A stretch of DNA of 64,000 nucleotides from positions 1 to 64,000 of IMG/VR virus record IMGVR_UViG_3300021512_000003. One strand, 5' to 3'. The notes beneath the pieces are model-generated. The model saw only the letters and a program-made list of their open reading frames with translations, was not told the DNA's origin and did not search any database. Below are positions 829 through 49,403 of this stretch, one piece after another. Origin of the DNA: a virus. Numbering within the stretch: the first letter of the stretch is position 1; each line of letters opens with the position of its first letter. The position numbers and the translations under genes are program-made.

Positions 829-888
829 TTATAACAAGTGCATCAACTCAGACGGCGCAGAGCGCCGCTGGTTATTCAGACGTTATAA
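829..888 (+). other. attC-like recombination site (family shared with 5231 and 5776)
   Basis: TTATAACaagtgcatcaactcagacggcgcagagcgccgctggttattcagacGTTATAA. Confidence 0.9.
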
Positions 889-919
889 ATAATAACCAAG
901 AACCTAGGAGGTTCTAAGT

Positions 920-1093
920 ATGTCAACACAACAAGTGATACCTAAATGCCCAGCACAAAACTGCCAATCAACTGCTTTTGTAGTTGTACGTGATGAACAT
1001 TTAGTTGATATTTACGACAACACTATCCAGTTTGTTTGCTGCAAGGTATGTTCCACCATAGCGGGAGTTTTACCAACTCACGTGGAGCAGTAA
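920..1093 (+). CDS. Small Zn-ribbon-like protein, 57 aa (not in ORF track)
   Basis: AGGAGG RBS inside hairpin 899-915; MSTQQVIPKCPAQNC...VCCKVC; resembles 6129-6317. Confidence 0.6.
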   Translation: MSTQQVIPKCPAQNCQSTAFVVVRDEHLVDIYDNTIQFVCCKVCSTIAGVLPTHVEQ

Positions 1094-1268
1094 CGCCCTC
1101 CAGTAAACTAGCAAGTGGTAACTTTGCAACCCAAACTTGTGCAGTCTCTGCATAAGTTTGCCCCTTACTGGCAACATAGTTTGCTGCCTCATCAGGGCAA
1201 GAGAATATAGCCTCTGGGTTGCAAAGTACTTTTGTGCGCGGCACAACACCGTAGTATGTCTTATTCAT
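1023..1268 (-). CDS. Small hypothetical protein, convergent partner of 920-1093
   Basis: AGAGGA RBS; PEAIFSCPDEAANY resembles PKAIFKCYPSAVDY in 6250-6486. Confidence 0.6.
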   Translation of the reverse strand: MNKTYYGVVPRTKVLCNPEAIFSCPDEAANYVASKGQTYAETAQVWVAKLPLASLLEGVTAPRELVKLPLWWNIPCSKQTG

Positions 1269-1290
1269 AATTTCTTTCCTCTAAAATTAT

Positions 1291-1350
1291 TTCTAACAAG
1301 AAGTTTAATTGTGACGCAGACAAGCTGCGCACATTAGCCTTACGTTAGTG
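1291..1350 (+). other. attC-like recombination site (near-identical to 7731-7790)
   Basis: TTCTAACaagaagtttaattgtgacgcagacaagctgcgcacattagccttacGTTAGTG. Confidence 0.85.
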
Positions 1351-1397
1351 GGGATTACTCCCTCTCAGTGTGTCCCCACTAACCATAGTAACACAAC

Positions 1398-4300
1398 CTA
1401 CCCTAGATTACCATAATAACCTTCTTTAATTGCATCATAAAGGTTTGCTGCTGTGTGTATTTCACCATCATATTCTACCACAGTGTCTCCAGTAATGCTA
1501 TGGTTATTTCCATCTTCTGTCTTAAACTCATACAACGTCTTTTTTAAATCTTCATCTTTCACCAACACTCCTTGGAATACTTCTGGGTTAAATCTAAAGC
1601 ATGTGACCCCCTTCAAGCCAGCATCATAAGCTTTAAGGAACACATCTCTAAACTCATCAAAAGGGGCTTCTGTAGGTATTTGTATTGTTTTCGATATTGA
1701 TGAATCTATCCATGTTTGTGCAGCAGCTTGCATAGCTATATGTTGCTCTGGAGTAATATCTGTAGCGTCTTGAAAGACCACCTCTTCTTCCTTACCTAGA
1801 GACCTTGCCACAAGAAGCTCATAACTACAAACTTCAACGGCCTCTTTAGACTTCTTCCCTTGTACAATCACATTCCTTGTGTATTTGTGTGCGAAAGATT
1901 GCTCTATTCCCGCTGAACAGTTATTCCCAACACTAAGAGATAGAGTTCCAGTCGGGGCCACACTATTCGCGTGAGTGAACCTACACCCATACTTCTTCAA
2001 ATCTTCACCTAGAGAACCACCCTCTGCCTCGTCTGCTTTTATAACCCTCTGCATGAAAACACCCTTACACCACAGAGACAGGTTATCACTCTCAGCCAAT
2101 AAAGGGGCCATACCCTTCGCCTTAGCGAGTTTTACGCCTTCCCTATAGCTACCCAGTGCTAACACCTTAGTAACCTCTCCTGTGAAGGATATGGCCTCCT
2201 CAGAGCCATAGTTTATACCTAGTAGAGAGAGACAAGAGCCTAAGCCTAGATACCCCATACCATGTCTACGCTTAGATAATATCTCTGCTCTTTGTTCTTC
2301 TAGTGGAAGGCCATTAAGTTCTACCACATTATCTAGCATACGAGTAAAGATGGCTATTACTTTGTTGTATGTGTCCCAGTCAAAAGAAGCTTCTTCAGTG
2401 AAGGGGTTTAGTACAAACTTAGTCAGATTTATTGATCCAAGTAGGCAGCTCCCGTGTGGGGGGAGAATTTGTTCACCACAGTTATGTGCATGTAGTCCAT
2501 TTGCATCAAAGGTGTTTATTCCTGTTATCTGAACATCATACACAGCCTCAACACCCTCTTCTGTAACCTCTTCTACTCTGGCAAAGAAACATTCACGATT
2601 TAGTTTACGTTTATAGCTTGCCAGAGCTTGCTGTAGGCGTGTGGCTTTTCTTGTATCTATAAAACCAACCTTGTCCTTGAACTGTGTTAAATTTTCACCA
2701 CTAACAACTAGCTCGTGATTTGCTTTAGTCTTATACTCACTTACTCCACCTCTTCCGTTAGGTAACATCCTTGTACCTGCTGGACGGCGATTTTTATAGA
2801 TAGTTGATACAATGCCTAGACGTAATAACATACGTTGCACCGCTTCAAGCCTAGGTAAGTCCGATTGAGATAGACGCACACTTACGCCTTTTTCCTGTGT
2901 ACCTTGTACAGAGCCATCAGTGTCAAAAAAGCCTCGTAAAAAACCCTTATAGAATTCACTAGAGGCTTTTTCAATCTTAGGAGAGATAACTTTATCTCCA
3001 GCTTGCATACCAACTTCCCGCGCAAGTTTATAAATAGCTGAAAGACTTAAGCGATATTCATTACGTCCTGTAACCTCTGACCAACCTTTAAAGTCACTCC
3101 TGTGAGGCAGTGTCTTTGCTGCTCTCAACGCTTCAACCATCACAGCATTAACACCATCATTAGCTGTTGCAACTTGCTTCCACACAGAGAGAACAGCTGC
3201 ATCCTGCTTCAAAGTCCCGTCTCCTATCAGCAGGCCTAGTAAATAACCTTGTTCTTCAGTGTACTCACCTTGCCATTGTTCCTGCTCTTTGTGCTTATTA
3301 AGTAAAACACAATCACCAACTTTCAGATTAGAGGCCTCACACCACTCTGTTTCAGTGTCATAACGACTAGAACCCACCCTACGCCTGACACGATGGTTTG
3401 GTGTCAGGCGTAACTTATAACCTTCTTTTGTCTGTAAGTTTACAACAGCTTTTGTTGTAGTCTTAAAGAAACCTTCTTTTCCTGAAGCATAAGATACCCC
3501 ATCAACTTGTGCAATAAAAGGTTTACCAATTAAATCACTAACTTGTCTAGCTCCTTTATTTGTTTGCACCCAAGTATCTGCTGTCACACATGGATTACAC
3601 GCCCGAAGCCTTTCGCAGAAGTAATTGTTGTTCTCTCTGTTGGCTTTATCTATAAGAAGGAACCCAGGTTCTGCATAATCATATGCAGTACGCATTAATG
3701 TTTCCCAAATGTCTTTTGCTCTCACAGTCTTATAAACCTTGCAGAGGATCTTGTTATCCTTTACTGTATAACCTGCTTCCCCACAATAGGTTTCCTCCCA
3801 GAACATATCTTTCCATACAAACTCTAAACTCTTGTCGCCCTTCTCTGCTTTAGATGCAGGGAAGAACAGCTTCCAATCTTTATCCTCTTTCACTGCCTCA
3901 ATGAAGTCATCTGTAATCAAGACAGAGAGGTTGAATTGTCTAAACCTTCCAGTCTCTTTCTTAGCAGTAATGAATGCTTCGACATCAGGATGCCATATTG
4001 CAAATGTCGCAATCTGCGCACCACGTCTTCCCCCAGCAGAGCTGATAGTGAAGCACATCTTATCAAAGATGTCCATAAAAGGTAGGGGGCCTGTTGTGTA
4101 AGCACCTACTCCAGAGACTAAAGCACCACTTGGCCTAATCGTAGACATCTCATAGCCAATGCCTGCTCCAGAAGAGAGTGTTATAGCGGCTTGACTGTTT
4201 GATTGCATGATTCCTTCCACAGAATCTTCCACGATTTTTCCAGTAGTACAATTTACCAAGCTTGCAGAAGGCTTATACTCCTCTGCTCCAGCGTTCGCTA

Positions 4301-4517
4301 GTATCCTTCCCGCTGGTGTAGCCCCGCTCTTTAAAGCCCAGAGAAATTCTTTGTACCAGTGAGCAGAATCTTCTTCACAAGCAGAGAGACTTTTTGCTAC
4401 TCTTTTGAAAGAGTCTTCAACAGTTTTATCAACCTCTCCTCCTTCATTGTCATACAGTTTATATTTCTGCTCCCAGATGTTTTGAGATGTAGGCTGAAGT
4501 TCAATATTAGTTCCCAT
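1398..4517 (-). CDS. nrdJ: Class II (adenosylcobalamin-dependent) ribonucleotide reductase, intein-interrupted
   Basis: PAGRILAN, GAGIGY, RRGAQ, EPG, NP[intein]CGEQ, CLLGSINL, VAPTGTLS, DSSISKT, LKGVTCFR; NrdJa-like C-terminus; no nrdB in window. Confidence 0.9.
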   Translation of the reverse strand: MGTNIELQPTSQNIWEQKYKLYDNEGGEVDKTVEDSFKRVAKSLSACEEDSAHWYKEFLWALKSGATPAGRILANAGAEEYKPSASLVNCTTGKIVEDSVEGIMQSNSQAAITLSSGAGIGYEMSTIRPSGALVSGVGAYTTGPLPFMDIFDKMCFTISSAGGRRGAQIATFAIWHPDVEAFITAKKETGRFRQFNLSVLITDDFIEAVKEDKDWKLFFPASKAEKGDKSLEFVWKDMFWEETYCGEAGYTVKDNKILCKVYKTVRAKDIWETLMRTAYDYAEPGFLLIDKANRENNNYFCERLRACNPCVTADTWVQTNKGARQVSDLIGKPFIAQVDGVSYASGKEGFFKTTTKAVVNLQTKEGYKLRLTPNHRVRRRVGSSRYDTETEWCEASNLKVGDCVLLNKHKEQEQWQGEYTEEQGYLLGLLIGDGTLKQDAAVLSVWKQVATANDGVNAVMVEALRAAKTLPHRSDFKGWSEVTGRNEYRLSLSAIYKLAREVGMQAGDKVISPKIEKASSEFYKGFLRGFFDTDGSVQGTQEKGVSVRLSQSDLPRLEAVQRMLLRLGIVSTIYKNRRPAGTRMLPNGRGGVSEYKTKANHELVVSGENLTQFKDKVGFIDTRKATRLQQALASYKRKLNRECFFARVEEVTEEGVEAVYDVQITGINTFDANGLHAHNCGEQILPPHGSCLLGSINLTKFVLNPFTEEASFDWDTYNKVIAIFTRMLDNVVELNGLPLEEQRAEILSKRRHGMGYLGLGSCLSLLGINYGSEEAISFTGEVTKVLALGSYREGVKLAKAKGMAPLLAESDNLSLWCKGVFMQRVIKADEAEGGSLGEDLKKYGCRFTHANSVAPTGTLSLSVGNNCSAGIEQSFAHKYTRNVIVQGKKSKEAVEVCSYELLVARSLGKEEEVVFQDATDITPEQHIAMQAAAQTWIDSSISKTIQIPTEAPFDEFRDVFLKAYDAGLKGVTCFRFNPEVFQGVLVKDEDLKKTLYEFKTEDGNNHSITGDTVVEYDGEIHTAANLYDAIKEGYYGNLG
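2481..3590 (-). mobile_element. Intein (370 aa) with LAGLIDADG homing endonuclease
   Basis: Begins CVTADTWV, block B LRLTPNHR, LAGLIDADG motifs LLGLLIGDG and FLRGFFDTDG, ends NGLHAHN before +1 Cys of CGEQ. Confidence 0.95.
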
Positions 4518-4531
4518 AGTACTCCTTTAGT

Positions 4532-4825
4532 TTACGCGACACCAAAAGACGGTAGCGCCTTTCTTAGATTGTTCGTGATTGTCGTAATGCTCTGGACACC
4601 TTGATATTTGCCGTTGCAATATACGCAGTAGTTGTCAATCCTGTCGCCCTCCGAGCATTCAAAAATGGCCGTCTCTCCTGTACCGATGCGCTCAACTGTT
4701 ATTCTCAGAGATGTGTCAACTTTCCCAGATTCTAGTGCAGCCGTTTCCATTCTCAGCATCGCTTTTTTGATGTTGGCACGTTGAGACCAGATCTTCTTCC
4801 TTTTTGCTGTTACCCTATAAGCCAT
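4532..4825 (-). CDS. Hypothetical protein
   Basis: 97 aa; AGGAG RBS supplied by the array leader element. Confidence 0.65.
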   Translation of the reverse strand: MAYRVTAKRKKIWSQRANIKKAMLRMETAALESGKVDTSLRITVERIGTGETAIFECSEGDRIDNYCVYCNGKYQGVQSITTITNNLRKALPSFGVA

Positions 4826-4873
4826 TGATTTTACTCCTACGACCTTGCGTAGTCTGTATAGTCCAGTGTTATA
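4818..4873 (+). other. Array leader / candidate attI-like site, copy 1, with IHF consensus
   Basis: 49-bp element identical to 57323-57371; IHF match AATCAATGGCTTA on - strand (4818-4830); ends in G|TTATA at 4868. Confidence 0.65.
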
Positions 4874-4909
4874 TTCTTAAGTCTTGTAAGTATTTGAGGT
4901 ATTCATCTA

Positions 4910-5236
4910 ATGATAAAAACAGACGACTCTATGAACACCTACAAGGAAAATTTATCAAAGGCTTTTGATACTAATTTACCTGAAGCAGATAAAACAGAAC
5001 TCTTAACCTACTTTCTAAATTTTAAGTCTCAAACTATCAACCATGTCAACGGCTGTCCCCCTAAAGCACAAGAAGCTGTAAATCTTCTTCAAACTTCACT
5101 AAATAAAGCCAATAAGAGCAGCGATAAACAAAGTCACTGGTATCAAAAACCAATAGGTATTATCTTCCTTAGTGTTGTTGGTATCACTTTGGCTTGGCTC
5201 TTGAGACATCTGCTAACCCCTTACATACAAATATAA
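4910..5236 (+). CDS. Cassette protein with C-terminal TM helix, canonical orientation
   Basis: Stop TAA lies within R'' (ATATAAC); WYQKPIGIIFLSVVGITLAWLL. Confidence 0.75.
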   Translation: MIKTDDSMNTYKENLSKAFDTNLPEADKTELLTYFLNFKSQTINHVNGCPPKAQEAVNLLQTSLNKANKSSDKQSHWYQKPIGIIFLSVVGITLAWLLRHLLTPYIQI

Positions 5237-5290
5237 CAAGTGCATCAACTCAGACGGCGCTATGCGCCGCAGGTTATGCAGGCGTTAGGT
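5231..5290 (+). other. attC-like recombination site
   Basis: ATATAACaagtgcatcaactcagacggcgctatgcgccgcaggttatgcaggcGTTAGGT. Confidence 0.9.
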
Positions 5291-5317
5291 GCCTCAATAC
5301 TAGAGTAAGGAAACACT

Positions 5318-5755
5318 GTGGACGCTTTTGCACTAGATATACTTAGAGAATTAAAAAACATAAGCACACCCTACGTTAATATAAATAACGTAACCTCTAA
5401 CTACGACATCCGTAGTAAGTATTTTATATCCTCTTATTTGCGACTAGAGTCTGAAGATTTAATTGCATCTGCAAATACACCTGATTGCGGTTTAGAGGTA
5501 GGGGCAGATGGAATACCTTCATGGTCTGTCGTTGATGTATATGTCACCGAGAAAGGTGACTTACTTCTCCATCCTCCAAAAACACCAATAAGTAAGGTGG
5601 TATTAAAAATTACCGAACACCCTGTTGTGGCAGCACTCATTGTTGCGGGTATTTTGGGCTTAGTTGCTTCTGTACCCACTTTTCTTGGTAGCGACCAGCA
5701 GTCAGGCCAACAACAAAAACTATCCCAACCCAAAACCAATGTATCTCAACCATAA
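5318..5755 (+). CDS. Cassette protein with C-terminal TM helix, canonical orientation
   Basis: AAGGA RBS and GTG start; HPVVAALIVAGILGLVA. Confidence 0.75.
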   Translation: MDAFALDILRELKNISTPYVNINNVTSNYDIRSKYFISSYLRLESEDLIASANTPDCGLEVGADGIPSWSVVDVYVTEKGDLLLHPPKTPISKVVLKITEHPVVAALIVAGILGLVASVPTFLGSDQQSGQQQKLSQPKTNVSQP

Positions 5756-5775
5756 ATCCTCCTGTCTGAACTTGC

Positions 5776-5835
5776 ACCTAACAATTGCATTAACTCAGAC
5801 GGCGCAGAGCGCCGCTGGTTATGCAGGCGTTATAT
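5776..5835 (+). other. attC-like recombination site
   Basis: ACCTAACaattgcattaactcagacggcgcagagcgccgctggttatgcaggcGTTATAT. Confidence 0.9.
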
Positions 5836-5837
5836 TG

Positions 5838-6038
5838 CTACGCGAGATCTTTACTTTTTACGTTTCCACAAATTTCGCACTGCAGATGATATTCAATATA
5901 TTCGTTACCGTCTGAAGATTGTATAGTTACCTTGTTAATTATTATCCACTTGTGCTCATGATCTGAAAAATTCCCAACAACTATCCTATATAGCCAACCA
6001 ATCATGGTATGCACTCCGTAGTTACTGCAATCTAACAA
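5838..6038 (-). CDS. Small cassette protein (HxW...CxxCG); true start probably ATG at about 6005
   Basis: GGAG before MIGWLY; fills cassette 5830-6080. Confidence 0.6.
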   Translation of the reverse strand: MLDCSNYGVHTMIGWLYRIVVGNFSDHEHKWIIINKVTIQSSDGNEYIEYHLQCEICGNVKSKDLA

Positions 6039-6086
6039 TTAATTCCAGCGGACGCGCTGGGCGCGCAGCTGAATCCGGTGTTATAA
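6030..6086 (+). other. attC-like recombination site
   Basis: ATCTAACaattaattccagcggacgcgctgggcgcgcagctgaatccggtGTTATAA. Confidence 0.9.
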
Positions 6087-6128
6087 ATAATAACCAAACC
6101 AACCAATGCACCAATTAAGGAGTTAAAA

Positions 6129-6317
6129 ATGGAAGGCGTTCAATCTCAGATAGGATATTATCCTAAGTGTCCTCATTGTCTTGAGGCTAATGGGTTCAAT
6201 ACTACACTAGACCCTCATACAGTTGGTGCTAGTGGAATGTACGAATTAGTTAGTTGTAAGTCATGCCAGACACTGATTCACATTTCTTGTCCCCCAAATC
6301 AGATCGTTTCAAACTAA
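6129..6317 (+). CDS. Small Zn-ribbon-like protein
   Basis: AAGGAG RBS; PKCPHC...SCKSC. Confidence 0.65.
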   Translation: MEGVQSQIGYYPKCPHCLEANGFNTTLDPHTVGASGMYELVSCKSCQTLIHISCPPNQIVSN

Positions 6318-6486
6318 AGTAGTCTGTAGGCACTTCTTGTATTTCATACAATGTATGAGAAGTGCCTTTCTTGTTTCTCTGCGCATAATCTACAGCACTC
6401 GGATAACACTTAAAGATAGCTTTAGGGTATAACTTTAAGTGCTCTACATCTGGGTAAACTAAAGTAATTGTAGCCATTTTATACAT
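6250..6486 (-). CDS. Small hypothetical protein, convergent partner of 6129-6317
   Basis: RBS present; local similarity to 1023-1268. Confidence 0.6.
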   Translation of the reverse strand: MYKMATITLVYPDVEHLKLYPKAIFKCYPSAVDYAQRNKKGTSHTLYEIQEVPTDYFSLKRSDLGDKKCESVSGMTYN

Positions 6487-6538
6487 CCTTCTAATTTAAA
6501 ATTATTATAAACAGTAACCAAGAACCTAGGAGGTTCTC

Positions 6539-6763
6539 ATGTCCTCAGTAAATCTAGTCAGTAACCACTAGGATAAAGGCTTCTGCCTAACAGAAGGTTG
6601 TAAGAGTGGCGCACTGACTATATACAACTCAAACGGTCTGCGGCTCCACTTTAAATGCCCCGTCTGTAAAATCGACAAGGAACTTAGTCCCACTGAGAGT
6701 AAAGAGCAAATCGAGATGATTGCTTATGAACTCGCTGCCAGTCTTACCACAACAAGTGAGTAA
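6539..6763 (+). pseudogene. Zn-ribbon-like ORF interrupted by in-frame TAG at codon 11
   Basis: Hairpin RBS 6521-6537; MSSVNLVSNH*DKGFCLTEGC...KCPVC...; frame stays open for 63 codons after the TAG at 6569-6571. Confidence 0.55.
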
Positions 6764-6829
6764 ACTGCTGTTTAGGAACTGCTCAAGCACCTGGGCAGTT
6801 TTCTCCTGTGCCGTATCTTCTATACACAT
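6629..6829 (-). CDS. Small hypothetical protein, convergent partner
   Basis: AGGGA RBS; 66 aa. Confidence 0.55.
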   Translation of the reverse strand: MCIEDTAQEKTAQVLEQFLNSSLLTCCGKTGSEFISNHLDLLFTLSGTKFLVDFTDGAFKVEPQTV

Positions 6830-6891
6830 AAAACTATTCCCTTATAATATACGATTAACCTTAATAACTAAGAACCGAGGAGGTTCTAAAT

Positions 6892-7068
6892 ATGTCACCT
6901 AACCAACTATTTGCAGAAGGTATTAGCAAACTATCTTCCATCCAGACAGCAGCAGAAACTACTGAGTACGAGAAGAATCTAGCAGAAGGGTTAATTCGTA
7001 CTCTTTCATCTTTGCACTCTGAAATCCTTTCTTTGAAAGAGCAAGTTCAAACTCTGCAAGACAAATAA
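6892..7068 (+). CDS. Small helical/coiled-coil protein, 58 aa (not in ORF track)
   Basis: Hairpin RBS 6871-6887; MSPNQLFAEG...LKEQVQTLQDK. Confidence 0.6.
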   Translation: MSPNQLFAEGISKLSSIQTAAETTEYEKNLAEGLIRTLSSLHSEILSLKEQVQTLQDK

Positions 7069-7153
7069 TTTGTCCATAAAGCCGAGTTTTTAGGTCAGAG
7101 CTTAGATGTATGTCTATAATTTGGAGTTTTTCAAAAAGTTCGTTTATTAGCAT
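6959..7153 (-). CDS. Small hypothetical protein, convergent partner
   Basis: GGAG RBS; 64 aa. Confidence 0.55.
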   Translation of the reverse strand: MLINELFEKLQIIDIHLSSDLKTRLYGQIICLAEFELALSKKGFQSAKMKEYELTLLLDSSRTQ

Positions 7154-7217
7154 GTACTTCTCTCCGTTTACATTGAAATACTAACTTAGAAAACCAAGAA
7201 CCTAGGAGGTTCTAAAC

Positions 7218-7484
7218 ATGGCTACTGAAATCTTGTTCAAGAAAATACAAGACACATTCCACTACGAGATCGCTAGTAGTGCTTCTGCATTTTCTTGTAA
7301 AGAAGTGAACCTAGTTGATTCAAAGTGGGATCAACTAGGGAGTGCATGGCACGAAGGGTTAAACGATCATGTCAGAGATGGTTTAGCCAACTACCAAAAA
7401 ATATTTGAAGAGGTAAACCAAATACACCCTATACCAGAAACACTTAAATACTTTTACGCTTACAGGGACGCAGCCCTTGCATGA
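7218..7484 (+). CDS. Small hypothetical protein
   Basis: Hairpin RBS 7197-7213; 88 aa. Confidence 0.65.
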   Translation: MATEILFKKIQDTFHYEIASSASAFSCKEVNLVDSKWDQLGSAWHEGLNDHVRDGLANYQKIFEEVNQIHPIPETLKYFYAYRDAALA

Positions 7485-7707
7485 TGTCTTGGAATGTGTC
7501 CTTACCAATCAAAGGTATTGTCTCGTTAAGAGATGCCTTCAGTCTAATGAAAATTTCAGGGGCTGTTAGGTGTTCATACTCTAAAGCTCTCTGAATAATT
7601 GCAGGGGTGGCTAGAGGGCTGGTTCCAGCGGCCCTCTCTTGTCTCTGTTGATCAGGGACTATGTAACCTGTGTAGGGGTCGTACCAGTACATCTTTTCTT
7701 CACTCAT
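7444..7707 (-). CDS. Small hypothetical protein, convergent partner
   Basis: GGAG RBS; 87 aa. Confidence 0.6.
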   Translation of the reverse strand: MSEEKMYWYDPYTGYIVPDQQRQERAAGTSPLATPAIIQRALEYEHLTAPEIFIRLKASLNETIPLIGKDTFQDIMQGLRPCKRKSI

Positions 7708-7730
7708 AAAACTATCTCCATTAAAATTAT

Positions 7731-7790
7731 TTCTAACAAGAAGCTTAATTGTGACGCAGACAAGCTGCGCACATTAGCCTTACGTTATGT
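7731..7790 (+). other. attC-like recombination site
   Basis: One mismatch to 1291-1347 up to the GTTA. Confidence 0.85.
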
Positions 7791-7961
7791 GTCGGTATAT
7801 TCGCTATCGTTTTCAAACTTCACTATAGCCAAATATAAATATTCTGGTATTTTCTGCCAGTGCGTCCTGTCGTATGAAGGCGTGCCCAAATAGTAGGTTC
7901 CGTCTTCCTCTTTCAATTCCAAATTGTCGTAATAGTTACTTAGCTTGCTTAACTCAGTCAT
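7785..7961 (-). CDS. Small cassette protein, 58 aa (not in ORF track)
   Basis: MTELSKLSNYYDNLEL...; its stop is the TTA of the R' box. Confidence 0.55.
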   Translation of the reverse strand: MTELSKLSNYYDNLELKEEDGTYYLGTPSYDRTHWQKIPEYLYLAIVKFENDSEYTDT

Positions 7962-7993
7962 AATTTAGCCCTTCTTTATAGTTAAAAACAACG

Positions 7994-8188: not shown

Positions 8189-8206
8189 TTTTTTGCCTCC
8201 TCCGGC

Positions 8207-11533: not shown

Positions 11534-14027
11534 ATGGAAGAAGATGTAATACTTGCTCCTCAGAAAGGCAAGCAAGAGTTAATGTTAAATGTAGAGGCAG
11601 ACGTTATCTTTGTAGGAGGTGCCGCAGGTAGTGCAAAGAGTTACACACTCCTTATGCGACTCTTGAGATATATCTCTGATCCAAATTTCAGAGCTATCTA
11701 CTTCAGAAGAACTACAACTCAGCTAGATGGTGCTGGTGGTCTTTGGGAAGAAGGTAAGGAGATGTACTTACCGTGGCGACCTAAGGTTAGAGAGAAAGAT
11801 CACACGTTGAAGTTCCCCTCTGGCGCTCTTGCTAAGTACGGCCACCTAGAGCACGAGAAGAATAAGATAGACCACCAAGGGTTACAGTATTCCGCAATAT
11901 TCTGGGATGAGTTGACACATTTCACTAAAGGCCAATTCACCTACCTACTCTCAAGACTCCGATCTAAGGCAGAAGGTAGTTCCTTTACAATGGGCAGTAT
12001 GAACCCTGACCCCGATTAATTTTAGTCGCTTCTGTGAGAAATCATAGTCGAAAATTTACTTAATTCAGGGGAAGCCCTATCGCAATAGCGAGGGTAATCC
12101 TGAGCGATTTTATCAACGAAGAGTAGTAGTTGAGATGAAAGCAATAAAAGATTTTGAAGGTTTTTATAGTATAACAAGAGAAGGTGATGTATATAGCCAC
12201 ATGGCTGGAAGGTTTAGAAGACTTTCTGCAAACAGTTCTGGCTATAAAGTTATTTCACTACATAAAGATTCAGTGAAGACCCAGCACCTCATACACAGAC
12301 TTGTTGCTCAAACCTTCATACCAAACCTAGAAGAGAAGCCTTGCGTAAACCATCTTGACAAAGACAGGTTGAACAATGCTGTAAAAAACCTAGAATGGTG
12401 TACCTATTTAGAAAACAATCTTCACTCACTGGAAGGCAAACTTGTGGGAAGTAGGCGGGAACACTCTTGCCGAGTAGCCCACACGGTCATAGCTTACACA
12501 ATGGATGGTTGGAGAGCTAAAGATATAGCTACCTCCCTAGACATACCTTTAGGGGGTGTTAAGCAAATACTCTTTGAACCCTCTTACGAGGATGTAAGGG
12601 AAGAGTATGACTGGAGCAACAGGCCAACAAAATCAGCCTCAATACAGGGTGAAGTGGTTGTGCGGATTTGCAAGCTGCTAGAACAGAATGTTCCTTATAA
12701 AGGTATTTCTGACCTAACAGGCGTGTCAAAGAAGAAGATAGGTAATATCAAAAACAGAGTCTCTTATAAGAGACTCTCTGAAGGCTTTCATTTTTAAAGT
12801 TGTGCAACGATCAGTCCATAGGACGTAGGCCAGAAGCTAATGCTGGTCGAAACAGTAGACACCTTAGTGCTTAGGCAAAGGTGGTGATATGATCTAGTCT
12901 GCATAGAGATATGCAGCAGCCTTAGAAGGCGGGGAACAGTTTGCGTCTGTTCTTGAATATAAGCGAGTTGGGTTCTTAACTGGGTTGAGTGGTACTTGGA
13001 TGATGAGGGCTACCCAGACCCTAAGAAGTGTGGACAGATAAGGTATTTTGTTGTTATTGATGGTGATCCTGTATTCAGGAATACTCGAGAGCAGCTTATA
13101 GAGGAGTTTCCTAATAGTTGTTATGTTAACAACAGAGATGCAGGAACAAAGATATTAGTCCCACCTAAAAGTTTTACATTTATTGGTGCAACAATCTTTG
13201 ATAACCCCGCGCTAATAGAAGCTAACCCAAACTACCTTGCAGAGCTTCAGTCTCTCCCTAATATTGAGAGAGCAAGGCTGTTGGACGGTAATTGGTATGC
13301 AAGACCTAAAGGTTCCAACTACTTTGAGAGAGATTGGCTTGTAAAGGTGGATAAGGTGCCTCTTGGATGTCTAACTGTGAGAGCATGGGACAAGGCTGCA
13401 AAAGAGCCAAGTGAGAAGGACAGATACCCAGACTACACAGCCTCAACAAAGCTTAGTAAGTGTAAGGATGGGTTTTACTACATTACAGGTAACTACATTA
13501 CTGAAGGCTCAGATCTTGATAGTGAGATCATAGGTCGCTTTAGGAAAAGGTGTGGTGAGAGGGACAAGGTTATTGAGAGGCAGTCAAGATCAGATGGTTC
13601 TGATTGTATAGTTGTCCTCGCATGTGACCCTGGTAGTGCAGGTATTTCAGAATTTCAAGCCTCTTCTATGAAGCTACTAGCAGAAGGTTTTGTTGTAAAG
13701 AAAGACCCTATGGCTATCACTAAGACAAAGGTTACGAAGTATCACCCCTTTGCATCTGCTTGTGAGAATGGCTTGGTTAGGATAGTCGAAAGCAGTTTCC
13801 CAAATAAAGCTACACTAGATCAGTGGTACAAGGAGAACGAATCCTTTAGCGAGGAACGCTCTTCCACTACTAGGAAAGATGATTGGCCTGACAGCGTAGC
13901 ATCTGCATTTAACTATCTTTGCAAAGAGAAGGTTATACCTAAGTTTAATTTATCTGCTTGCACTAGAGATATTACTTCCACAAGCGGGAAACAAGCAATA
14001 CACGACATCAACCCAATAAGAAGATAG
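11534..14027 (+). CDS. terL: Terminase large subunit, spliced (exons 11534-12016 and 12966-14027)
   Basis: Walker A GGAAGSAKS, Walker B IFWDE, RAWD and DDWPD nuclease motifs; splicing restores NPDPD-SWVLNWVEWYLD in frame. Confidence 0.92.
12017..12965 (+). mobile_element. Group I intron in terL
   Basis: P1 CGAU|U pairs with AGUCG with U.G at the splice site; AATTCAGGGGAA and GGTAATCCTGAGC (P/Q); CAACGATCA and GATATGATCTA (R/S); terminal G. Confidence 0.9.
12135..12797 (+). CDS. Intron-encoded NUMOD4-HNH homing endonuclease
   Basis: KAIKDFEGFYSIT; IHRLVAQTF...VNHLDKDRLNNAVKNLEW. Confidence 0.9.
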   Translation: MKAIKDFEGFYSITREGDVYSHMAGRFRRLSANSSGYKVISLHKDSVKTQHLIHRLVAQTFIPNLEEKPCVNHLDKDRLNNAVKNLEWCTYLENNLHSLEGKLVGSRREHSCRVAHTVIAYTMDGWRAKDIATSLDIPLGGVKQILFEPSYEDVREEYDWSNRPTKSASIQGEVVVRICKLLEQNVPYKGISDLTGVSKKKIGNIKNRVSYKRLSEGFHF

Positions 14028-24070: not shown

Positions 24071-24517
24071 ATGACAGTAACAATTGATCCTGCAGATGAC
24101 CCTATTGCTCAGGTTAGGCTAACTATAGGTGATGCAGAAACAACGTATATTCTGGATGATGTGGTCATCCAATACATCCTAGACAAACATAGTAATGATA
24201 TAACAGCATCTTCTTTAGAGGCTCTTCGTTATATTGTCTCTACGTTAGGCAAGAAGGTAGACGAAGAGGTGGGGGATGTTAAGGTTAAGTGGAGTCAACT
24301 AAGGGCACACTATAAGCAACTCCTTAGTGACCTACTAAGAGACCCATCTATCACACTAACCCCTGTCCTTCATTTCTTTGGAGGTACAAGCAAAACTGAG
24401 ATAAACAGGGTTAGGAATAATTCAGACTCTAACCTACCTCCACTACAAGAAGGGGAGTTTACCACTGTGCCAAAGTCATCTACAAGAGATGATGACAATG
24501 GCTTTCTCTTAAACTAA
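24071..24517 (+). CDS. Head-tail adaptor
   Basis: VRLTIGD motif; position. Confidence 0.65.
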   Translation: MTVTIDPADDPIAQVRLTIGDAETTYILDDVVIQYILDKHSNDITASSLEALRYIVSTLGKKVDEEVGDVKVKWSQLRAHYKQLLSDLLRDPSITLTPVLHFFGGTSKTEINRVRNNSDSNLPPLQEGEFTTVPKSSTRDDDNGFLLN

Positions 24518-41857: not shown

Positions 41858-41964
41858 TACCCAACCCCTCTTTGCTTATGAAGAATGCTCATCATCGTCC
41901 CCTGTTGGCATAAACTTGTATACAAGGACACAGATGATAAGTGTTACAACACCAATTATAAAAT

Positions 41965-43981: not shown

Positions 43982-43985
43982 TTTA

Positions 43986-45056
43986 CTACTCCTTGTTGTA
44001 TTTTCTTCTCAGATAGTCGATGTCAACAAACATTGGATTGTAGCTTCCGTCTCTTACGTTGTGCTTTACGATGACACCTCGCCAGTGGTGGTTTCCTTGG
44101 TGCCCTTTGTAGTCCTCTGAGTGTGCGTAGTAGGCCCCTGCTATGACGGCCCACTGTTGCCTACCAGAAGCAGGTAAGAACCTTGTAGCTACGTCTAATG
44201 TTTGCTTGTGCCCCATTGTAAAGGATTCTCCTACGTTTTTCAAGACATTCATAGCAGTTCCTCCGTAGGGTCTTCCTGTCATTGGGTTAGCCATGTAGTG
44301 TACATAGCTGACACCATCTACTATAACAGGTTTTAGGAAATCATGCACCTCCCATCCGAACTCTTTATATTTGAGGTTGTCATAAGAGAGGAGTCCAGAG
44401 AGTTCTGGATTGGCCTCTACGTGACGCTCAATACGAGACTCATGGTTGCCCATGACAAGTATCATTGTGGGTTTATATGGCGCCCCTCCTGACGTTTTTA
44501 GAGCTTCTTGGTACTTGTGTAAGGGTTTTAAGAGAAAGCGCATACCTTCTATTGCTGCCTCTATATCCTTATTCACCCTCTTCCCTTCTGCTCTTTTCTT
44601 ACCTTTGTCATAAGAGGATAGTGAGGGCATATCAGCATGATCTCCCAGGTTCACTATAACATCAGGCTTCCTCTCAACAATGTACTCTCCTAACCAAGAG
44701 AGGTATGCCATGTCTATGTCTGGTTTGCATTGAGTGTCTGGGATGACTAAGTGTGTTTTCTCTCTGGTGTCTGTAGGGTTGTGTGGTGTTGTCTCTATCC
44801 TAAAAACACCTTCTTCACTAACCACCTTCTCTTGTTTGTTCTCCGTTGTACCTACCTTCTTTGCATCATTCTCCAAATGCCACAACTGGTAAGTCTCCTT
44901 TCGGAGGAAATCTGTTACAGTACTCTTCCCTATCCCGTATGTTTGGGCAATCTCTCTTGCAAGAAGGCCACTACCATCCAACTCAAGAACACCTAGCTTT
45001 ACTGCCTCTTCTTGTAGACTACCCATCAGCACCCCCTCTGGATTTCTCTTGAACAA
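43986..45056 (-). CDS. Calcineurin-like metallophosphoesterase with N-terminal HTH
   Basis: IPDTQ, GDHAD, GNHE, GHKQ. Confidence 0.85.
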   Translation of the reverse strand: MFKRNPEGVLMGSLQEEAVKLGVLELDGSGLLAREIAQTYGIGKSTVTDFLRKETYQLWHLENDAKKVGTTENKQEKVVSEEGVFRIETTPHNPTDTREKTHLVIPDTQCKPDIDMAYLSWLGEYIVERKPDVIVNLGDHADMPSLSSYDKGKKRAEGKRVNKDIEAAIEGMRFLLKPLHKYQEALKTSGGAPYKPTMILVMGNHESRIERHVEANPELSGLLSYDNLKYKEFGWEVHDFLKPVIVDGVSYVHYMANPMTGRPYGGTAMNVLKNVGESFTMGHKQTLDVATRFLPASGRQQWAVIAGAYYAHSEDYKGHQGNHHWRGVIVKHNVRDGSYNPMFVDIDYLRRKYNKE

Positions 45057-45582
45057 CCTTCCTCATAATATCTTTCCTCTTCTTTGCATTAGAAGTGTCT
45101 TCACTGGAGAAGCCTTTCATCCTCAAGTATCGTTTTACAACCTCTTCCCTCTTCATAACAAGGATAACACGTTTTTCTAATCTTGCCTCTTCAAAAGATA
45201 TTGTGTGCTTTTCTGAATAAGTTTTGATGTCGTGACAAGGTTTACACAAGAAGGCCAGATCGTCCTCTGTTATAAAGACTAATCCTTCAATAAAAGCTTG
45301 AAGGTCTTTGCTTGACCTTAGAGAGTGTCCTCCCTTTTTATGATCAACTTGTAAGTGTTTCGTTGCCAACTCTAGGTTACAACAAGAGCAGACACCCCCC
45401 CAAACCGTTGGGAACCTCTCACTAGGTTTTGGGTTGGTTATACGCCCTCTGTTCTTCTTAATAAATGTGAGCTTAACAGGGTGCTTCTCCCACAGCCCCC
45501 GCCTTATACCTCCTCTTAAGAAAGAGAAGAACCTACTCTCTGTAGGCCATATCTTCGGGTAATCCTCCCAAGGTTTCTTCAT
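45019..45582 (-). CDS. HNH endonuclease (conserved phage type)
   Basis: CSCC...VDH...LCKPCHDIKT. Confidence 0.8.
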   Translation of the reverse strand: MKKPWEDYPKIWPTESRFFSFLRGGIRRGLWEKHPVKLTFIKKNRGRITNPKPSERFPTVWGGVCSCCNLELATKHLQVDHKKGGHSLRSSKDLQAFIEGLVFITEDDLAFLCKPCHDIKTYSEKHTISFEEARLEKRVILVMKREEVVKRYLRMKGFSSEDTSNAKKRKDIMRKVVQEKSRGGADG

Positions 45583-46056
45583 ATCTCTCCTACCAGCACC
45601 TTACAATGAAGCTTCTTACCTCTTTAAAAAATAACACTGCTGCAGTACACACACTACTAATAAGTACTAAAGGCACAACAAGTTGTAAGAGGATGAGTAC
45701 AGCAGGTCTTCTTATTCACTTTCTCTCTACTAGGTCTAATGGTGTGGTAAATTCTTCTCTTAGTGGCCTCATATACTCTCCACAAATCTTTTTATGTGTA
45801 CTTAGGTAGAAAACTGCTTAACTCAATCCACCGCTATATTGATATTATGGCTTGGTTGCGAGCATGAGTGCTCCCACACAGATAGCCCAAACAACAAGTG
45901 GGTTACTTAAAGTTAAATCCACTCCAACCACTGCGCCTATCGGTAGGAGTATTGTGCAGCCGGTAAAAGCCCCCGTACAAAAAGGGTAAATCTTGTCCAT
46001 AATACATCTCCTGACTCTAGGTTACTGTCTCGCCCTATAACACCTCGTGTGTTTAT

Positions 46057-47097
46057 TCACTTCCTACCTCCGGTAGTCTCAACACCATGCTTAATGTAAA
46101 ACTCTTCTACATCTAAAATATCTCCATCCCACCTACGCATTCTTGCTAGGTCGAAATATTCCTGGCTCAAGCTTATCCAGTCTCCTTCTATTTCTAAATT
46201 GTCCCATGTAGTGTAGGCTAGAGGTTCAGGATACCACTCTTTAAACTTAGCAGCAACGGCCTGTATGCACTCCCTGTCCGTCTTTAAGTCTTTTAGGTAG
46301 TGGTAGGCAGCCTTCTTCCCAAAACGCACACCAGCGAGCTTATTGGCCTTATAGTTATCCGCTGTGTCTTCACAAAGCCATTGGAAATAAAAGAACTTCC
46401 TCCCTACTCCTTTTATGTCTTTATTTGCATTCTCTTTAAGGCCACCTAAGCCATGTACATAGAGAGGTCTTGCCATAAGAGGCACACCACTAGAGTCCTT
46501 TCTGAAGTCAAATACCCACCCCTCATTACCAAAAGCATCCTTATCGAAAGTGGCAGCTATATACTTCTTATCTTTACTACCCTCACCTACCCTCCGTCCC
46601 TTCCACTGCCAGTAATTTAGAACATCGTCTGCTTCTACGTCTGTAATCACCTTTGCTTTGTGGTATAACACCATATAATCTTTTACAGCTTGCAAGTTGA
46701 GAGGTTTCTGCTTTCCTAGCCTGTTCCCCTTATACTGCTGTACCGTAGCAAGGTGGTGCCGGAATGTCAACCCCTCATCTAAGTACACCTCATATGCAGA
46801 AGCATCACAAGCTTTAAGAATGTAGCTTAATATGCTCTTAACATTCTTATATGCCTGTTCTACAGGGGGAGCTTCTATCTTATCCTCTATCTCGAAATCT
46901 GTGATATGGAAAGGAAGTAGCCTAGCCTCTGTTCTTGTCACGTTTGTCTCTGTAATAAACTCCTTAAAGGCTGTCCTGTGAGCAAAGGGTTTAGCCTTCC
47001 CTGTCTTCCTGTGTGTTACAACTATGGTTCTCTTTTCTCCAGCAGCAGAAGCTCTGAAGGCAAGAAGACTACCATCTATTGCTACGAAGTTACCCAT
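46057..47097 (-). CDS. 5'-3' exonuclease (T7 gp6/RNase H-like)
   Basis: IDGSLL, YKGNR, EADD, DKD, DTADN. Confidence 0.85.
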   Translation of the reverse strand: MGNFVAIDGSLLAFRASAAGEKRTIVVTHRKTGKAKPFAHRTAFKEFITETNVTRTEARLLPFHITDFEIEDKIEAPPVEQAYKNVKSILSYILKACDASAYEVYLDEGLTFRHHLATVQQYKGNRLGKQKPLNLQAVKDYMVLYHKAKVITDVEADDVLNYWQWKGRRVGEGSKDKKYIAATFDKDAFGNEGWVFDFRKDSSGVPLMARPLYVHGLGGLKENANKDIKGVGRKFFYFQWLCEDTADNYKANKLAGVRFGKKAAYHYLKDLKTDRECIQAVAAKFKEWYPEPLAYTTWDNLEIEGDWISLSQEYFDLARMRRWDGDILDVEEFYIKHGVETTGGRK

Positions 47098-47398
47098 CAG
47101 TGTCACCACCTATGAACTTGTCAACCATAATCTCATCAAACAAGTCATTGAAAGACTCTTCCCCGTGATCTCCAGAATAAAGCCACTCAACTTCTTTTGC
47201 TAGTCTCCCTGCTAAACCAATGATCTGAAGAGATGTCTTTAACCTAGAGATTGTAGGTTCTTCGAACCTATTTCCCAGTGTATCTCCCCAATCATCTACT
47301 GTTGTGTCATCGTTTGCTTGGATCTCCCGGTCTAACTCCTCAGCAAACAAAACAATCTCAAAGCACTTATATTCAAAATGTCCACCGCTCATACACAC
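47090..47398 (-). CDS. Conserved phage hypothetical protein
   Basis: MSGGHFEY...EWLYSGD motif. Confidence 0.7.
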   Translation of the reverse strand: MCMSGGHFEYKCFEIVLFAEELDREIQANDDTTVDDWGDTLGNRFEEPTISRLKTSLQIIGLAGRLAKEVEWLYSGDHGEESFNDLFDEIMVDKFIGGDTDG

Positions 47399-47447
47399 CT
47401 CGTCTCTTGTTAAGGAGGGAGAGGGAAAACCCCCTCCCTAGACACAA

Positions 47448-48296
47448 CTACCAAGGGGTGTCGGACTCTGAGTCATCTGTTGGAGGAGCTTCCTGTAGTG
47501 TTCCTGAAGAACCTTCCTCCTCTAGGACATCTTGCACCACTACCTCTTCTTTAGGTGTTGCCTTTTCCTCTAACTCTTCCCCTTTAATGAAGGCTGAGAG
47601 AGGGACAGTGAGGGCCAACACATCTTGGACGTAAGTTTTAATTTGATCTGTGGTTAAGTCTGGATCAGCTTTCTTGGTCTTTAGTGCCATATTAGCCTTA
47701 CAAGCATTCCTTACAGCATGACCTACAGAGGCACCTACATCCCGCTTGCTCATGCCTGGATTCTTCCCCTGACACCACGCTTCGGCAGCAATACCTAGTG
47801 TGTGAAGCTCTTTAGCCAACTCTTCTACTTTAGGGTTGTCTGGTTTAAACTTATGCCCATAATACTCCAAAGCAGCATTAATTGCATGACCAACCTTAAT
47901 ACCTGTTAGATCAAAAGGTGTAGCTGGAGTGTTACCTTGGCCTCCTCCTGTAGCCTCTTTTGATTCGTAAGCCTTCCCTTCTACAAGGTTCATAATAGTT
48001 AGGCCAGACTTCTTGGCGTTCTTGAAGTCTCCGTTTTGTATGTATTGGAGAAGCACCTTACTACCTGCACCAAGAATAGCATACCCCTCACCATCTAATC
48101 GCTTTACAAAGAAGTTATCTTTGTCCGTACTCCCTAAGCCATACCATGCCTCCACTCCATCAGTATCATTCTTTATTAGCATAGAGAGTCGGTGTGTGTT
48201 TGTTATGCTCTTTCCTTCCCACACAAATGTGTCAGGCTCTTTAAGTTGGTAAGCACCGCACTTCATAACTGTTCCAATTACATTCTGTAAACTCAT
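47448..48296 (-). CDS. Putative ssDNA-binding protein
   Basis: Acidic C-terminal tail ending DTPW; replication context. Confidence 0.5.
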   Translation of the reverse strand: MSLQNVIGTVMKCGAYQLKEPDTFVWEGKSITNTHRLSMLIKNDTDGVEAWYGLGSTDKDNFFVKRLDGEGYAILGAGSKVLLQYIQNGDFKNAKKSGLTIMNLVEGKAYESKEATGGGQGNTPATPFDLTGIKVGHAINAALEYYGHKFKPDNPKVEELAKELHTLGIAAEAWCQGKNPGMSKRDVGASVGHAVRNACKANMALKTKKADPDLTTDQIKTYVQDVLALTVPLSAFIKGEELEEKATPKEEVVVQDVLEEEGSSGTLQEAPPTDDSESDTPW

Positions 48297-48356
48297 AACC
48301 TTGCTCTCTCTTATGTTAGGTTTCTAAATATTTCGCTTGAATATCTCTGAGACACT

Positions 48357-48791
48357 CTATACTGCACCTTGTTTTTGCATCCACTTCTTTATTGCAGCTG
48401 GTTGTTTGATGTGTTCTGGTACTTCAAAGTTATGCGCCTTTGCATACTCCAGAAGCTCTACTTTCTTAGTAAGGGTTTCTAAAGTGGCCATGGTATCAGA
48501 ACTCTCCTCTACCTGTAAAGGAGTTTCTTCCACAATAACTGCATCTTCCCCTAAAGGAGCTTCCTCTTCAGAAGCATCTACCTCGATACCTTGTGAAACA
48601 CCTTCTTCACCTTTTACAAGAGTAATACTGTAGTAGCCAGCACCATACCGCTTACCACAGAACTCATTCTTCCCACCCCTGTCTACAAAGAATCCCTCTT
48701 TGTTGGCGTCCTCTAAGGCAGTGAGGAAGTTAGTTATACCAAGGTGGTCATACCCAGCTTGTGCAGTTATCGTTTTCTTTTCAATAGTCAT
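48357..48791 (-). CDS. Hypothetical protein
   Basis: 144 aa. Confidence 0.65.
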   Translation of the reverse strand: MTIEKKTITAQAGYDHLGITNFLTALEDANKEGFFVDRGGKNEFCGKRYGAGYYSITLVKGEEGVSQGIEVDASEEEAPLGEDAVIVEETPLQVEESSDTMATLETLTKKVELLEYAKAHNFEVPEHIKQPAAIKKWMQKQGAV

Positions 48792-48849
48792 ATATATTCT
48801 CTTTTTGTTAAAATTTGTTTGTGTGGAGATAAACTTCTATCGTAATGCC

Positions 48850-48905
48850 TAACCTTTTGATTTCATCAGTATGACTTTGTGTAGTCTGTATAGTCCAGTG
48901 TTATA
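48850..48905 (+). other. Array leader / candidate attI-like site, copy 2, with IHF consensus
   Basis: 41/49 identical to the other copies, last 25 nt identical; IHF match AATCAAAAGGTTA on - strand (48850-48862); G|TT at 48900. Confidence 0.65.
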
Positions 48906-48937
48906 AATAATAACCAAGAACCTAGGAGGTTCTAAAT

Positions 48938-49183
48938 ACGAAACCAATAAACCACCTAAACTATAAAACGATTGAGAAAGACCTCAACCAAGCACTACAA
49001 TCCCACATCTCTTACGAAGATTGGATGGAGTTTATTGTAAGACTTGTAGGCGGCTCGGAAGACATCTACCAGATCAACTACATACTTCCAACCAGTGCTG
49101 GTATTACTACAGAAGTTCCGCTTGCAGAAGCAACTTCTTTATACGTGGGTATAATTCGTCTTGTTGCTCCTCCGCAAGTGTGA
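48938..49183 (+). pseudogene. 81-codon ORF whose start position reads ACG instead of ATG
   Basis: Hairpin RBS 48917-48933 then AAATACG, where the sister copy at 6888 has AAATATG; frame open to TGA 49183. Confidence 0.55.
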
Positions 49184-49319
49184 GTACATCCCTGAAAACT
49201 TGCTTATCCTCACTACCGTCTGCAAGGAGGATTTTGGGGACGAGGAGGTAATCTACCTCTCCATTGATATGCCTCTTTATGTTGTCCAGAACTCCTTGAA
49301 GTAAAAGTGTATCTATCAT
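49107..49319 (-). CDS. Small hypothetical protein, convergent partner
   Basis: GAGG RBS; 70 aa. Confidence 0.65.
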   Translation of the reverse strand: MIDTLLLQGVLDNIKRHINGEVDYLLVPKILLADGSEDKQVFRDVLTLAEEQQDELYPRIKKLLLQAELL

Positions 49320-49345
49320 ATCTCTGTCCTCTTATCTAAAATTAT

Positions 49346-49403
49346 TTCTAACAAGTTAATGTTGTCGGAATTGCTACGCAATCCGCAAATTAAGACGTTA
49401 TGT
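49346..49403 (+). other. attC-like recombination site
   Basis: TTCTAACaagttaatgttgtcggaattgctacgcaatccgcaaattaagacGTTATGT. Confidence 0.85.

Follow-up and report, generated by a model that had tools for sequence, protein, structure and literature searches.

The virus record IMGVR_UViG_3300021512_000003 (81,888 nt with a 127-nt terminal repeat, from a tailed phage of a vent metagenome), whose first 64 kb form the window analysed here, carries three plus-strand cassettes with shared ends at 883–1344 (cassette 1), 6081–7784 (cassette 2) and 48901–49397 (cassette 3) that hold six pairs of small convergent genes overlapping at their 3' ends. Together the two shared ends make up one attC R box, and we interpret the elements as integron-type cassettes in an integrase-less attC cluster (CALIN), each unit of which carries one forward (plus-strand) and one reverse (minus-strand) gene that would be expressed in a context-dependent and mutually exclusive manner; we assign this interpretation as a whole a probability of roughly 0.55. 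The cassettes and pairs were first pointed out by a model that saw only the letters and their open reading frames (ORFs) and made no database searches (the sequence-only reading), and several of its claims are taken up below.

The shared cassette ends are halves of an attC R box

As the sequence-only reading had stated, all three cassettes share both ends: GTTATAAATAAT lies on the plus strand at 882, 6080 and 48900, and GTTAGAAATAAT on the minus strand at 1286, 7726 and 49341. Allowing one mismatch, the end motif gives 8 matches versus 0.90 expected, those at 24410 and 62365 being unrelated one-mismatch matches. The ends are the two halves of a single attC R box, with R' (GTTATAAATAAT) at the start of the cassette and R'' (ATTATTTCTAAC) at its close, and they are complementary at 11 of 12 positions, as expected for the ends of an excised cassette. 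When the 81,888-nt genome was scanned with an attC rule (TAACAA and GTTA separated by 34–70 nt, with pairing ends and a DNA fold no weaker than −7 kcal/mol), 18 sites were found on the plus strand and none on the minus strand, and 20 shuffles gave none; the same rule applied to 50 kb of plasmid R100 found one site, which is the genuine attC of the aadA1 cassette, on that cassette's top strand. TAAC...GTTA is present in all of the sites, and the full 7-nt R-box consensus in only some of them.

A covariance model (R1) was built from five of the phage sites, aligned in register and with the structure set by hand; RNAalifold run on a MAFFT alignment of 11 sites, whose rows were out of register, returned no structure. 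Searched against R100, model R1 recovers the aadA1 attC at full length (45.7 bits, E 1.4e-9) as its sole match in that plasmid, and within the window it has 14 matches on the plus strand and one weak match (E 0.032) on the minus strand. Both sides of the helix differ in 13 of 22 pairs, and 93% of the cells are paired, versus 23–37% with the partner slid, when counted on the alignment fitted to model R1. The predicted DNA folds begin with TAAC/GTTA pairing followed by an unpaired spacer of 2–3 nt, and carry three single-base bulges, 4 nt apart, on the R'' (TAAC, 5') arm. This arrangement of bulges and spacer matches the attC layout as given in the pertinent part of PMC5027507, namely two to three extrahelical bases near L'', an unpaired central spacer and a variable terminal loop.

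The sites that bound the three cassettes, all on the plus strand, are as follows. To the left of cassette 1 lies site 832–885, whose GTTA at 882–885 holds the G/TT boundary (80.3 bits; it is one of the sequences on which R1 was trained), and at its right end lies site 1294–1347 (R'' ...TTTCTAAC, R' GTTA; 76.5 bits). Cassette 2 is preceded by site 6033–6083 (30.5 bits, E 2.7e-5) and closed by site 7734–7787, which is 96% identical to the site of cassette 1, and cassette 3 is closed by site 49349–49400 (37.8 bits, E 2.4e-7). Directly before cassette 3 stands a copy of a repeat (D2; 4818–4896, 48850–48928 and 57316–57394, ending in CCAGTGTTATA) that from 48850 to 48903 on the plus strand ends in GTGTTA; repeat D2 gave no match to model R1. 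The tyrosine recombinase family PF00589 has no match in the 81,888-nt genome (a control search matched 14 of 14 genomes), and with no integrase in the genome the array is of the CALIN type and not a complete integron.

Three further observations concern the sites themselves. The R'' box of site 832–885 yields CTTGTTATAAT at 828–838 on the minus strand, which is a perfect extended −10 (TGnTATAAT) and immediately precedes the minus-strand gene 133–786; some attC sites may double as phage promoters. An attC-like site also lies inside the 127-nt terminal repeat (window 77–126, genome 81838–81887), and the forward genes 4910–5236 and 5318–5755 on the plus strand are each followed by one (at 5234 and 5779) and have neither the hairpin leader nor the convergent partner described below.

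It is quite improbable, in our estimate, that the repeats are PeSL-type phage modules (a terminator hairpin with a promoter) that shuffle ORFans by homologous recombination, their ends acting as inward promoters. Such composite terminator/promoter motifs mediate indels in T4-like phages, according to the portion of PMC4122927 that deals with them, and here the end motifs resemble −10 boxes (TATAAAT, TAGAAAT), the extended −10 at 828–838 precedes a minus-strand gene, and the indel of unit d (below) has homeologous flanks. However, model R1, made from sites of this phage, picks out a genuine class 1 attC (E 1.4e-9), the bulge pattern, the spacer and the strictly uniform orientation are those of attC sites, the minus-strand ORFs that begin 20–35 nt after TTGTTA are too close to it for TTGTTA to be their −35, and homology to a metagenomic contig (L021, below) breaks exactly at G/TTA beside a different, longer attC. 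The sequence-only reading had also seen the T4 late-promoter consensus TATAAATA at the cassette starts and speculated on activation by a co-infecting T4-like phage, which would switch the forward genes on. This we regard as very improbable indeed: the motif stands at three of three cassette starts, but it is part of the R' box, its 8 matches compare with 3.0 expected, three of them being the cassette starts and only one falling in the plus-strand structural block, it does not serve this phage as a general late motif, and no T4-like kinship of the phage was seen in the searches made.

Anatomy of the cassettes and their gene pairs

Cassette 1 is one unit made up of a leader, c1+ and c1-. Gene c1+ (920–1093, plus strand, codon score 0.044) stands in the canonical cassette orientation and encodes 57 aa with a four-Cys zinc-ribbon pattern; c1- (1023–1268, minus strand) encodes 81 aa behind the Shine–Dalgarno sequence (SD) AGGAAAG, overlaps c1+ by 71 nt, has a codon log-likelihood ratio (LLR) of 0.20 and occurs with a G81E variant.

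Cassette 2 holds four units, a to d, with no attC sites between them. In unit a, c2a+ (6129–6317, plus strand) is a 62-aa zinc ribbon with a weak MJ0042 CXXC match (E 0.0086) and a codon score of 0.055, and it has, as the sequence-only reading implied, no hairpin leader and the ribosome binding site AAGGAG instead; c2a- (6250–6486, minus strand) overlaps it by 68 nt and encodes 78 aa or, more likely, 75 aa from an ATG at 6477. In unit b, the zinc-ribbon gene c2b+ (6539–6763, plus strand) is stopped after 10 codons by a TAG at 6569–6571, for which the phage should have no suppressor since no tRNA was found in it; in runs X3 and X4 this codon is TAT (6571 G>T) and the frame is intact. Its partner c2b- (6629–6829, minus strand; 66 aa, LLR 0.14) overlaps it by 135 nt. 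Unit c consists of c2c+ (6892–7068, plus strand; 58 aa, helical, LLR 0.20) and c2c- (6959–7153, minus strand; 64 aa, with a variant 7119 A>G that changes I to T), which overlap by 110 nt, and unit d of c2d+ (7218–7484, plus strand; 88 aa, a member of a metagenomic family of helical proteins of 85–112 aa) and c2d- (7444–7707, minus strand; 87 aa), which overlap by 41 nt. The single unit of cassette 3 pairs c3+ (48938–49183, plus strand; 81 codons), which has an open frame and starts with ACG here and with ATG (M) in two relatives, contig L021 and protein P0011, with c3- (49107–49319, minus strand; 70 aa), the overlap being 77 nt.

The six pairs named by the sequence-only reading thus stand with their coordinates and overlaps of 41–135 nt, with the correction that c2b+ is stopped by its TAG and c3+ starts with ACG. 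Translations of 920–1093, 6129–6317 and 6539–6763 also bear out the paired-Cys patterns that it had reported in three of the forward products. Its statement that every reverse ORF has its own ribosome binding site holds for five of six, in which ATG and SD agree at the first ATG; in the sixth, 6250–6486, the SD fits only the second ATG, at 6477. These units do not match the canonical cassette of one promoterless sense ORF, each being composed of a sense ORF plus an antisense ORF.

Degenerate remnants of both end motifs are found at the inner junctions of cassette 2, for example TAAAATTATT followed by ATAAACAGTAACCAAG and ACTAAC followed by TTAGAAAACCAAG, and cassette 2 was probably formed from four once separate cassettes whose internal attC sites were lost. 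Fused integron cassettes with lost internal attC are known from the integron literature; like them, cassette 2 joins several units and keeps just remnants of the end motifs at its inner junctions, and the difference is that four units stand in a row here and each is a convergent pair. Terminator-like hairpins are present just downstream of c2d+ (7613–7637, plus strand), c2b- (6580–6596, minus strand) and c3- (48969–48990, minus strand), where they sit inside the partner's coding region; they could be due to chance.

Both strands of the units look coding

When a convergent partner was defined as an ORF with ATG and SD, at least 60 aa and an overlap of 20–150 nt, none of the 65 other small genes of the phage genome had one, so the pair layout is not a background property of the sequence. 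Codon scores of the reverse genes are 0.14–0.24, compared with a 95th percentile of 0.124 for shadow ORFs and an average of 0.32 for long genes, and public gene calls include products for 9 of 10 of the ORFs, from both strands.

Among the forward products, c2d+ has 8 full-length homologues of 85–112 aa (E 1.7e-19 to 1.8e-4) among 1.84 billion representatives; its conserved C-terminus spans the overlap and matches the family to the last residue, and its predicted fold is a helical bundle (predicted local distance difference test, pLDDT, 84). With this model as query, Foldseek returned no PDB or BFVD match at E <= 0.001, tblastn found nothing for c1- in phages or for c2d+ in phages and plasmids, and a search with the c2d+ family for related loci in viral contigs likewise gave nothing. 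An AbiEii identity of c2d+ (E 0.0018) was considered and rejected, as it was seen in only 1 of 9 family members. Among 5.8 billion proteins, c1- matches only itself. The Atlas gave a weak helix–turn–helix match for c2d- (0.88–0.90, 131–132 shared features), which is no more than a lead, and nothing for c3-.

The c3 pair permits comparison of variants on both strands. Between c3+ and L021, 10 sites differ, of which one is the start codon, six are synonymous and three are non-synonymous; c3- keeps its length of 70 aa in the 89% variant P0012. Across the pair, amino-acid changes affect 15 of 100 residues outside the overlap and 0 of 50 inside it (Fisher p 0.0026), and the lack of changes in the overlap fits a double constraint. 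Resemblance on both strands is limited to units c1 and c2a: c1+ and c2a+ are zinc ribbons with weak similarity to each other (E 6e-5), c1- and c2a- have a short motif in common (E 0.003), and the other cargo proteins are mutually unrelated. These similarities suggest that c1 and c2a go back to the duplication of an entire pair.

These proteins also bear on the idea that each pair is a toxin-antidote module, in which a product or an antisense RNA neutralises the partner and stabilises the cassette. Some type I toxin–antitoxin (TA) systems have genes that converge and overlap at the 3' end. Chromosomal integrons hold TA cassettes that bring promoters of their own, and some of these stand in opposite orientation (in the relevant section of PMC11014356); toxicity could explain the loss of two forward genes, and c1 and c2a were apparently inherited as pairs. 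Against this, ten of the ORF products (all except c2b+ and c3+) had no match to Pfam, PHROGs, NCBIfam or PADLOC at curated cut-offs or at E < 0.001, no membrane-like segment is present (the maximum Kyte–Doolittle hydropathy in a 19-residue window, KD(19), over 12 products is 1.33), both partners are protein-coding, five of the six units are mutually dissimilar, and the paired genes converge instead of forming an operon. The units therefore lack the co-directional operon and known family of type II TA systems and, with KD(19) at or below 1.33, the small hydrophobic membrane toxin of type I systems. We consider a toxin-antidote function improbable, and the sequence-only reading's choice of a toxin-antidote, antisense or switch module drew no support from TA or defence family matches, from a membrane-toxin-like peptide or from the convergent gene arrangement.

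A portable hairpin leader precedes five forward genes

The 17-nt palindrome AGAACC(T/G)AGGAGGTTCT, which the sequence-only reading had noticed upstream of five forward ORFs, is indeed present at 899, 6521, 6871, 7197 and 48917, in all five cases on the plus strand. This number compares with 0.02 expected and was reached in 0 of 100 shuffles, and no further copy with up to one mismatch exists in the whole 81,888-nt genome. The copy of c1+ (AGAACCTAGGAGGTTCT, 899–915, plus strand; −7.9 kcal/mol) contains the gene's AGGAGG and is terminator-like on the minus strand, and the other plus-strand leaders are those of c2b+ (6521–6537), c2c+ (6871–6887, the T>G variant, with a 6-bp stem), c2d+ (7197–7213) and c3+ (48917–48933). 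The leader RNA is predicted to fold into a 7-bp stem with a 3-nt loop, so that of the two AGG triplets in AGGAGG the first lies in the loop and the other in the stem, in agreement with the earlier description of a stem-loop that partly buries the SD; fold energies are −7.3 to −8.6 kcal/mol with z-scores of −0.6 to −2.4. In all five copies the start codon, in one of them mutated to ACG, lies 5–8 nt past the hairpin. The left arm has no role but pairing, which argues that the palindrome has been selected. Read on the minus strand, all five copies are terminator-like, a stem followed by TGGTTATTAT.

Cassettes and units are mobile

Scans for the leader motif gave 13 matches in viral contigs (single matches), 14 in genome contigs and 14 in metagenome contigs, and scans for the end motifs gave 3 matches to the left end and 5 to the right end. 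The flanks of the genome, metagenome and end-motif loci were compared with those in the phage by script and blastn, and the metagenomic contig L021 was the sole relative; of the 13 viral-contig leader loci this comparison covered only L012, whose flank is unrelated. The search for the hairpin motif in other sequences that the sequence-only reading had recommended thus yielded one relative among metagenome contigs and no other among the loci checked.

L021 matches cassette 3 at 96.2% identity (L021:1021–1284 versus 48900–49163), and the homology begins exactly at the GTTA of 48900, as in a discrete mobile unit with a G/TT boundary. Upstream of the match L021 carries a different attC of ~115 nt, as two near-identical attC-like repeats around a forward DUF2971-family gene that is 33–36% identical to plasmid copies in Bacillus and haloarchaea. 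L021 looks like a canonical cassette array other than that of the phage. The occurrence of a cassette at 96% identity in such a canonical-looking array shows directly, at the level of sequence, that one cassette pool serves both a phage of lytic type and a second replicon.

Movement of a single unit is seen in run X4, where a 239-nt contig joins 7170 to 7719 and unit d (7171–7718) is absent as a block, with the 4-nt repeat CATT at the joint. These comparisons show, at the level of sequence, that both cassettes and units are mobile. The sequence-only reading's picture of a fixed scaffold with exchangeable cargo is supported: the ends are attC R-box halves, the cargo is unrelated except for the weak similarity of c1 and c2a, unit d is absent from a contig of run X4, and cassette 3 sits behind a different attC in L021.

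Setting in the phage genome

Recognizable phage genes include those for the portal, tape-measure protein, DNA polymerase, primase/helicase and exonuclease. Structural genes occupy the plus strand from ~10 to 41 kb, and replication and small early-type genes the minus strand at 1–8 kb and 41–62 kb; the phage looks lytic. A portal-based search for relatives found one locus only, at 32% identity, blastn of 5900–7900 against phages gave nothing, and an Rfam search of the window gave no match.

Two neighbouring regions were noted in passing. On the minus strand, 1398–4517 is a 1039-aa ribonucleotide-reductase-like ORF, identified by eye, which seems to hold an intein-like insert (Cys ... His-Asn-Cys boundaries, also by eye), and contigs of runs X2 and X4 skip 1129–1379 nt within it (2474 to 3604 and 2264 to 3644). 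On the plus strand, 11534–14027 is a terminase-like region in three ORFs (161, 220 and 343 aa) that may contain an intron, an intein or a homing element.

Possible expression of the two faces of a unit

How might the two genes of a unit be used? The forward gene stands in the canonical cassette orientation behind what would be a portable leader, made up of a −10-like TATAAAT inside R', the 7-bp hairpin and AGGAGG. The reverse gene has an ordinary phage-style SD and runs in the same sense as the phage replication and early genes. The two transcripts would be convergent and would overlap fully, from which we infer that expression is mutually exclusive and context-dependent. In the phage, minus-strand read-through would make the reverse proteins and silence the forward genes, whereas in a bacterial array the forward proteins would come from transcription that runs in the direction of the integron promoter Pc or starts at the cassette's own −10. 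On the plus-strand RNA the hairpin could be a modest translational brake or a 5' stabiliser; on the minus-strand RNA the palindrome, together with the U-rich tract behind it, may halt read-through at the border of the cassette. The remaining phage cassettes hold single minus-strand genes 20–35 nt after TTGTTA, and at this distance, which applies to nearly all cassettes, the minus-strand ORFs probably depend on transcription that runs in from upstream rather than on a right-end promoter. Two forward genes that are broken here are intact elsewhere, which agrees with forward suppression in the phage. Antisense or convergent interference is the most plausible mechanism; like the promoters, the role of the hairpin and all of the protein functions, it is something we infer.

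Several points weigh against this interpretation. Expression of the units is a prediction from the sequence, and the putative plus-strand promoter consists of a −10-like hexamer only; where the cassettes start, a consensus scan listed none on that strand. Agreement of the R boxes with RYYYAAC/GTTRRRY is no more than partial (GTTATAA, TTCTAAC). The five hairpins are near-identical and show no compensatory change, the sole variant being at the loop-closing position, their energy is unremarkable, and a DNA operator or a minus-strand terminator fits the hairpin equally well. On the coding side, the codon scores of c1+ (0.044) and c2a+ (0.055) fall in the shadow-ORF range, the Atlas model of c2d- is poor (pLDDT 0.46), 8 of the first 33 residues of c3- are changed so that constraint there may be weak, and P0011 and P0012 possibly come from different strains, which weakens the Fisher test. 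L021 is only 1,284 nt long, and its source could be another phage and not a bacterium. Finally, two of the six forward genes are broken here and the forward genes may therefore be decaying passengers.

This last point leads to the alternative that only one face matters, in which the reverse genes work for the phage and the forward genes and leader are decaying passengers from a bacterial array, with no interplay between the two. The inactivation here of two of six forward genes that are intact in relatives, the low codon scores of c1+ and c2a+, and the fact that all other phage cassettes hold minus-strand genes only would be explained in this way; however, four forward genes are intact, the 17-nt leader is perfectly conserved in five copies, c2d+ matches its family right through its final residue, neither c3 gene varies within the overlap, and c1 and c2a were apparently duplicated with both of their genes. 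On balance we think it unlikely. A more far-reaching version of the two-gene interpretation, clearly less probable than the interpretation itself and put forward tentatively, is that the units are "double-agent" cassettes traded by phage and host through attC recombination, with a forward protein for the bacterial integron, a reverse protein for the phage, and convergent transcription selecting the face; the forward genes broken in the phage would then be faces harmful to it.

Comparison with known systems

In our literature searches we found no account of cassettes whose two genes converge and overlap behind a common hairpin leader. The convergent layout and the portable leader suggest that these cassettes carry information for two carriers at once, and if the switch is real it would offer a compact and testable example of regulation that depends on how a gene is oriented to the transcription of its carrier, as well as a route to phage–host conflict genes among ORFans. 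Convergent-promoter interference switches and type I TA loci with 3' overlap are known, and the present units resemble them in standing face to face with RNAs that would overlap; they differ in that both partners are proteins here, predicted from their sequence.

Clusters of attC sites in phages have already been published, but as short arrays, and in the present phage most of the small early-region genes are bounded by attC sites. CALINs are known in virulent and temperate phages, with a minimum of two sites per CALIN (Qi, Rajabal, Ghaly, Tetu and Gillings 2023, PMC9892861, in its part on phages). As in the arrays treated there, attC-type hairpins bound small cassettes without intI whose cargo has no known function; the phage studied here differs from the examples of that part in having ~18 sites per genome, with most genes against the canonical orientation, and in its convergent 3'-overlapping pairs behind a hairpin/SD leader, which do not appear in section 3.4 of that paper.

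The PeSL modules of PMC4122927, as presented in the portion of that paper concerned, are similar in that short conserved hairpin–promoter joints flank swappable ORFans in phage early regions. They differ in that the joints described here match true attC in sequence and structure and break at G/TT, and in that this phage showed no T4-like kinship in the searches made. In Vibrionaceae superintegrons, cassettes were measured to carry promoters on the sense or the antisense strand, an antisense one silencing a neighbouring gene (Nucleic Acids Research 2024, PMC11014356, in the part on these promoters). Transcription borne by a cassette on either strand is what is predicted for the units of this phage; the superintegron cassettes at issue in that part are gene-less and were tested experimentally, whereas here both strands encode proteins, predicted from sequence.

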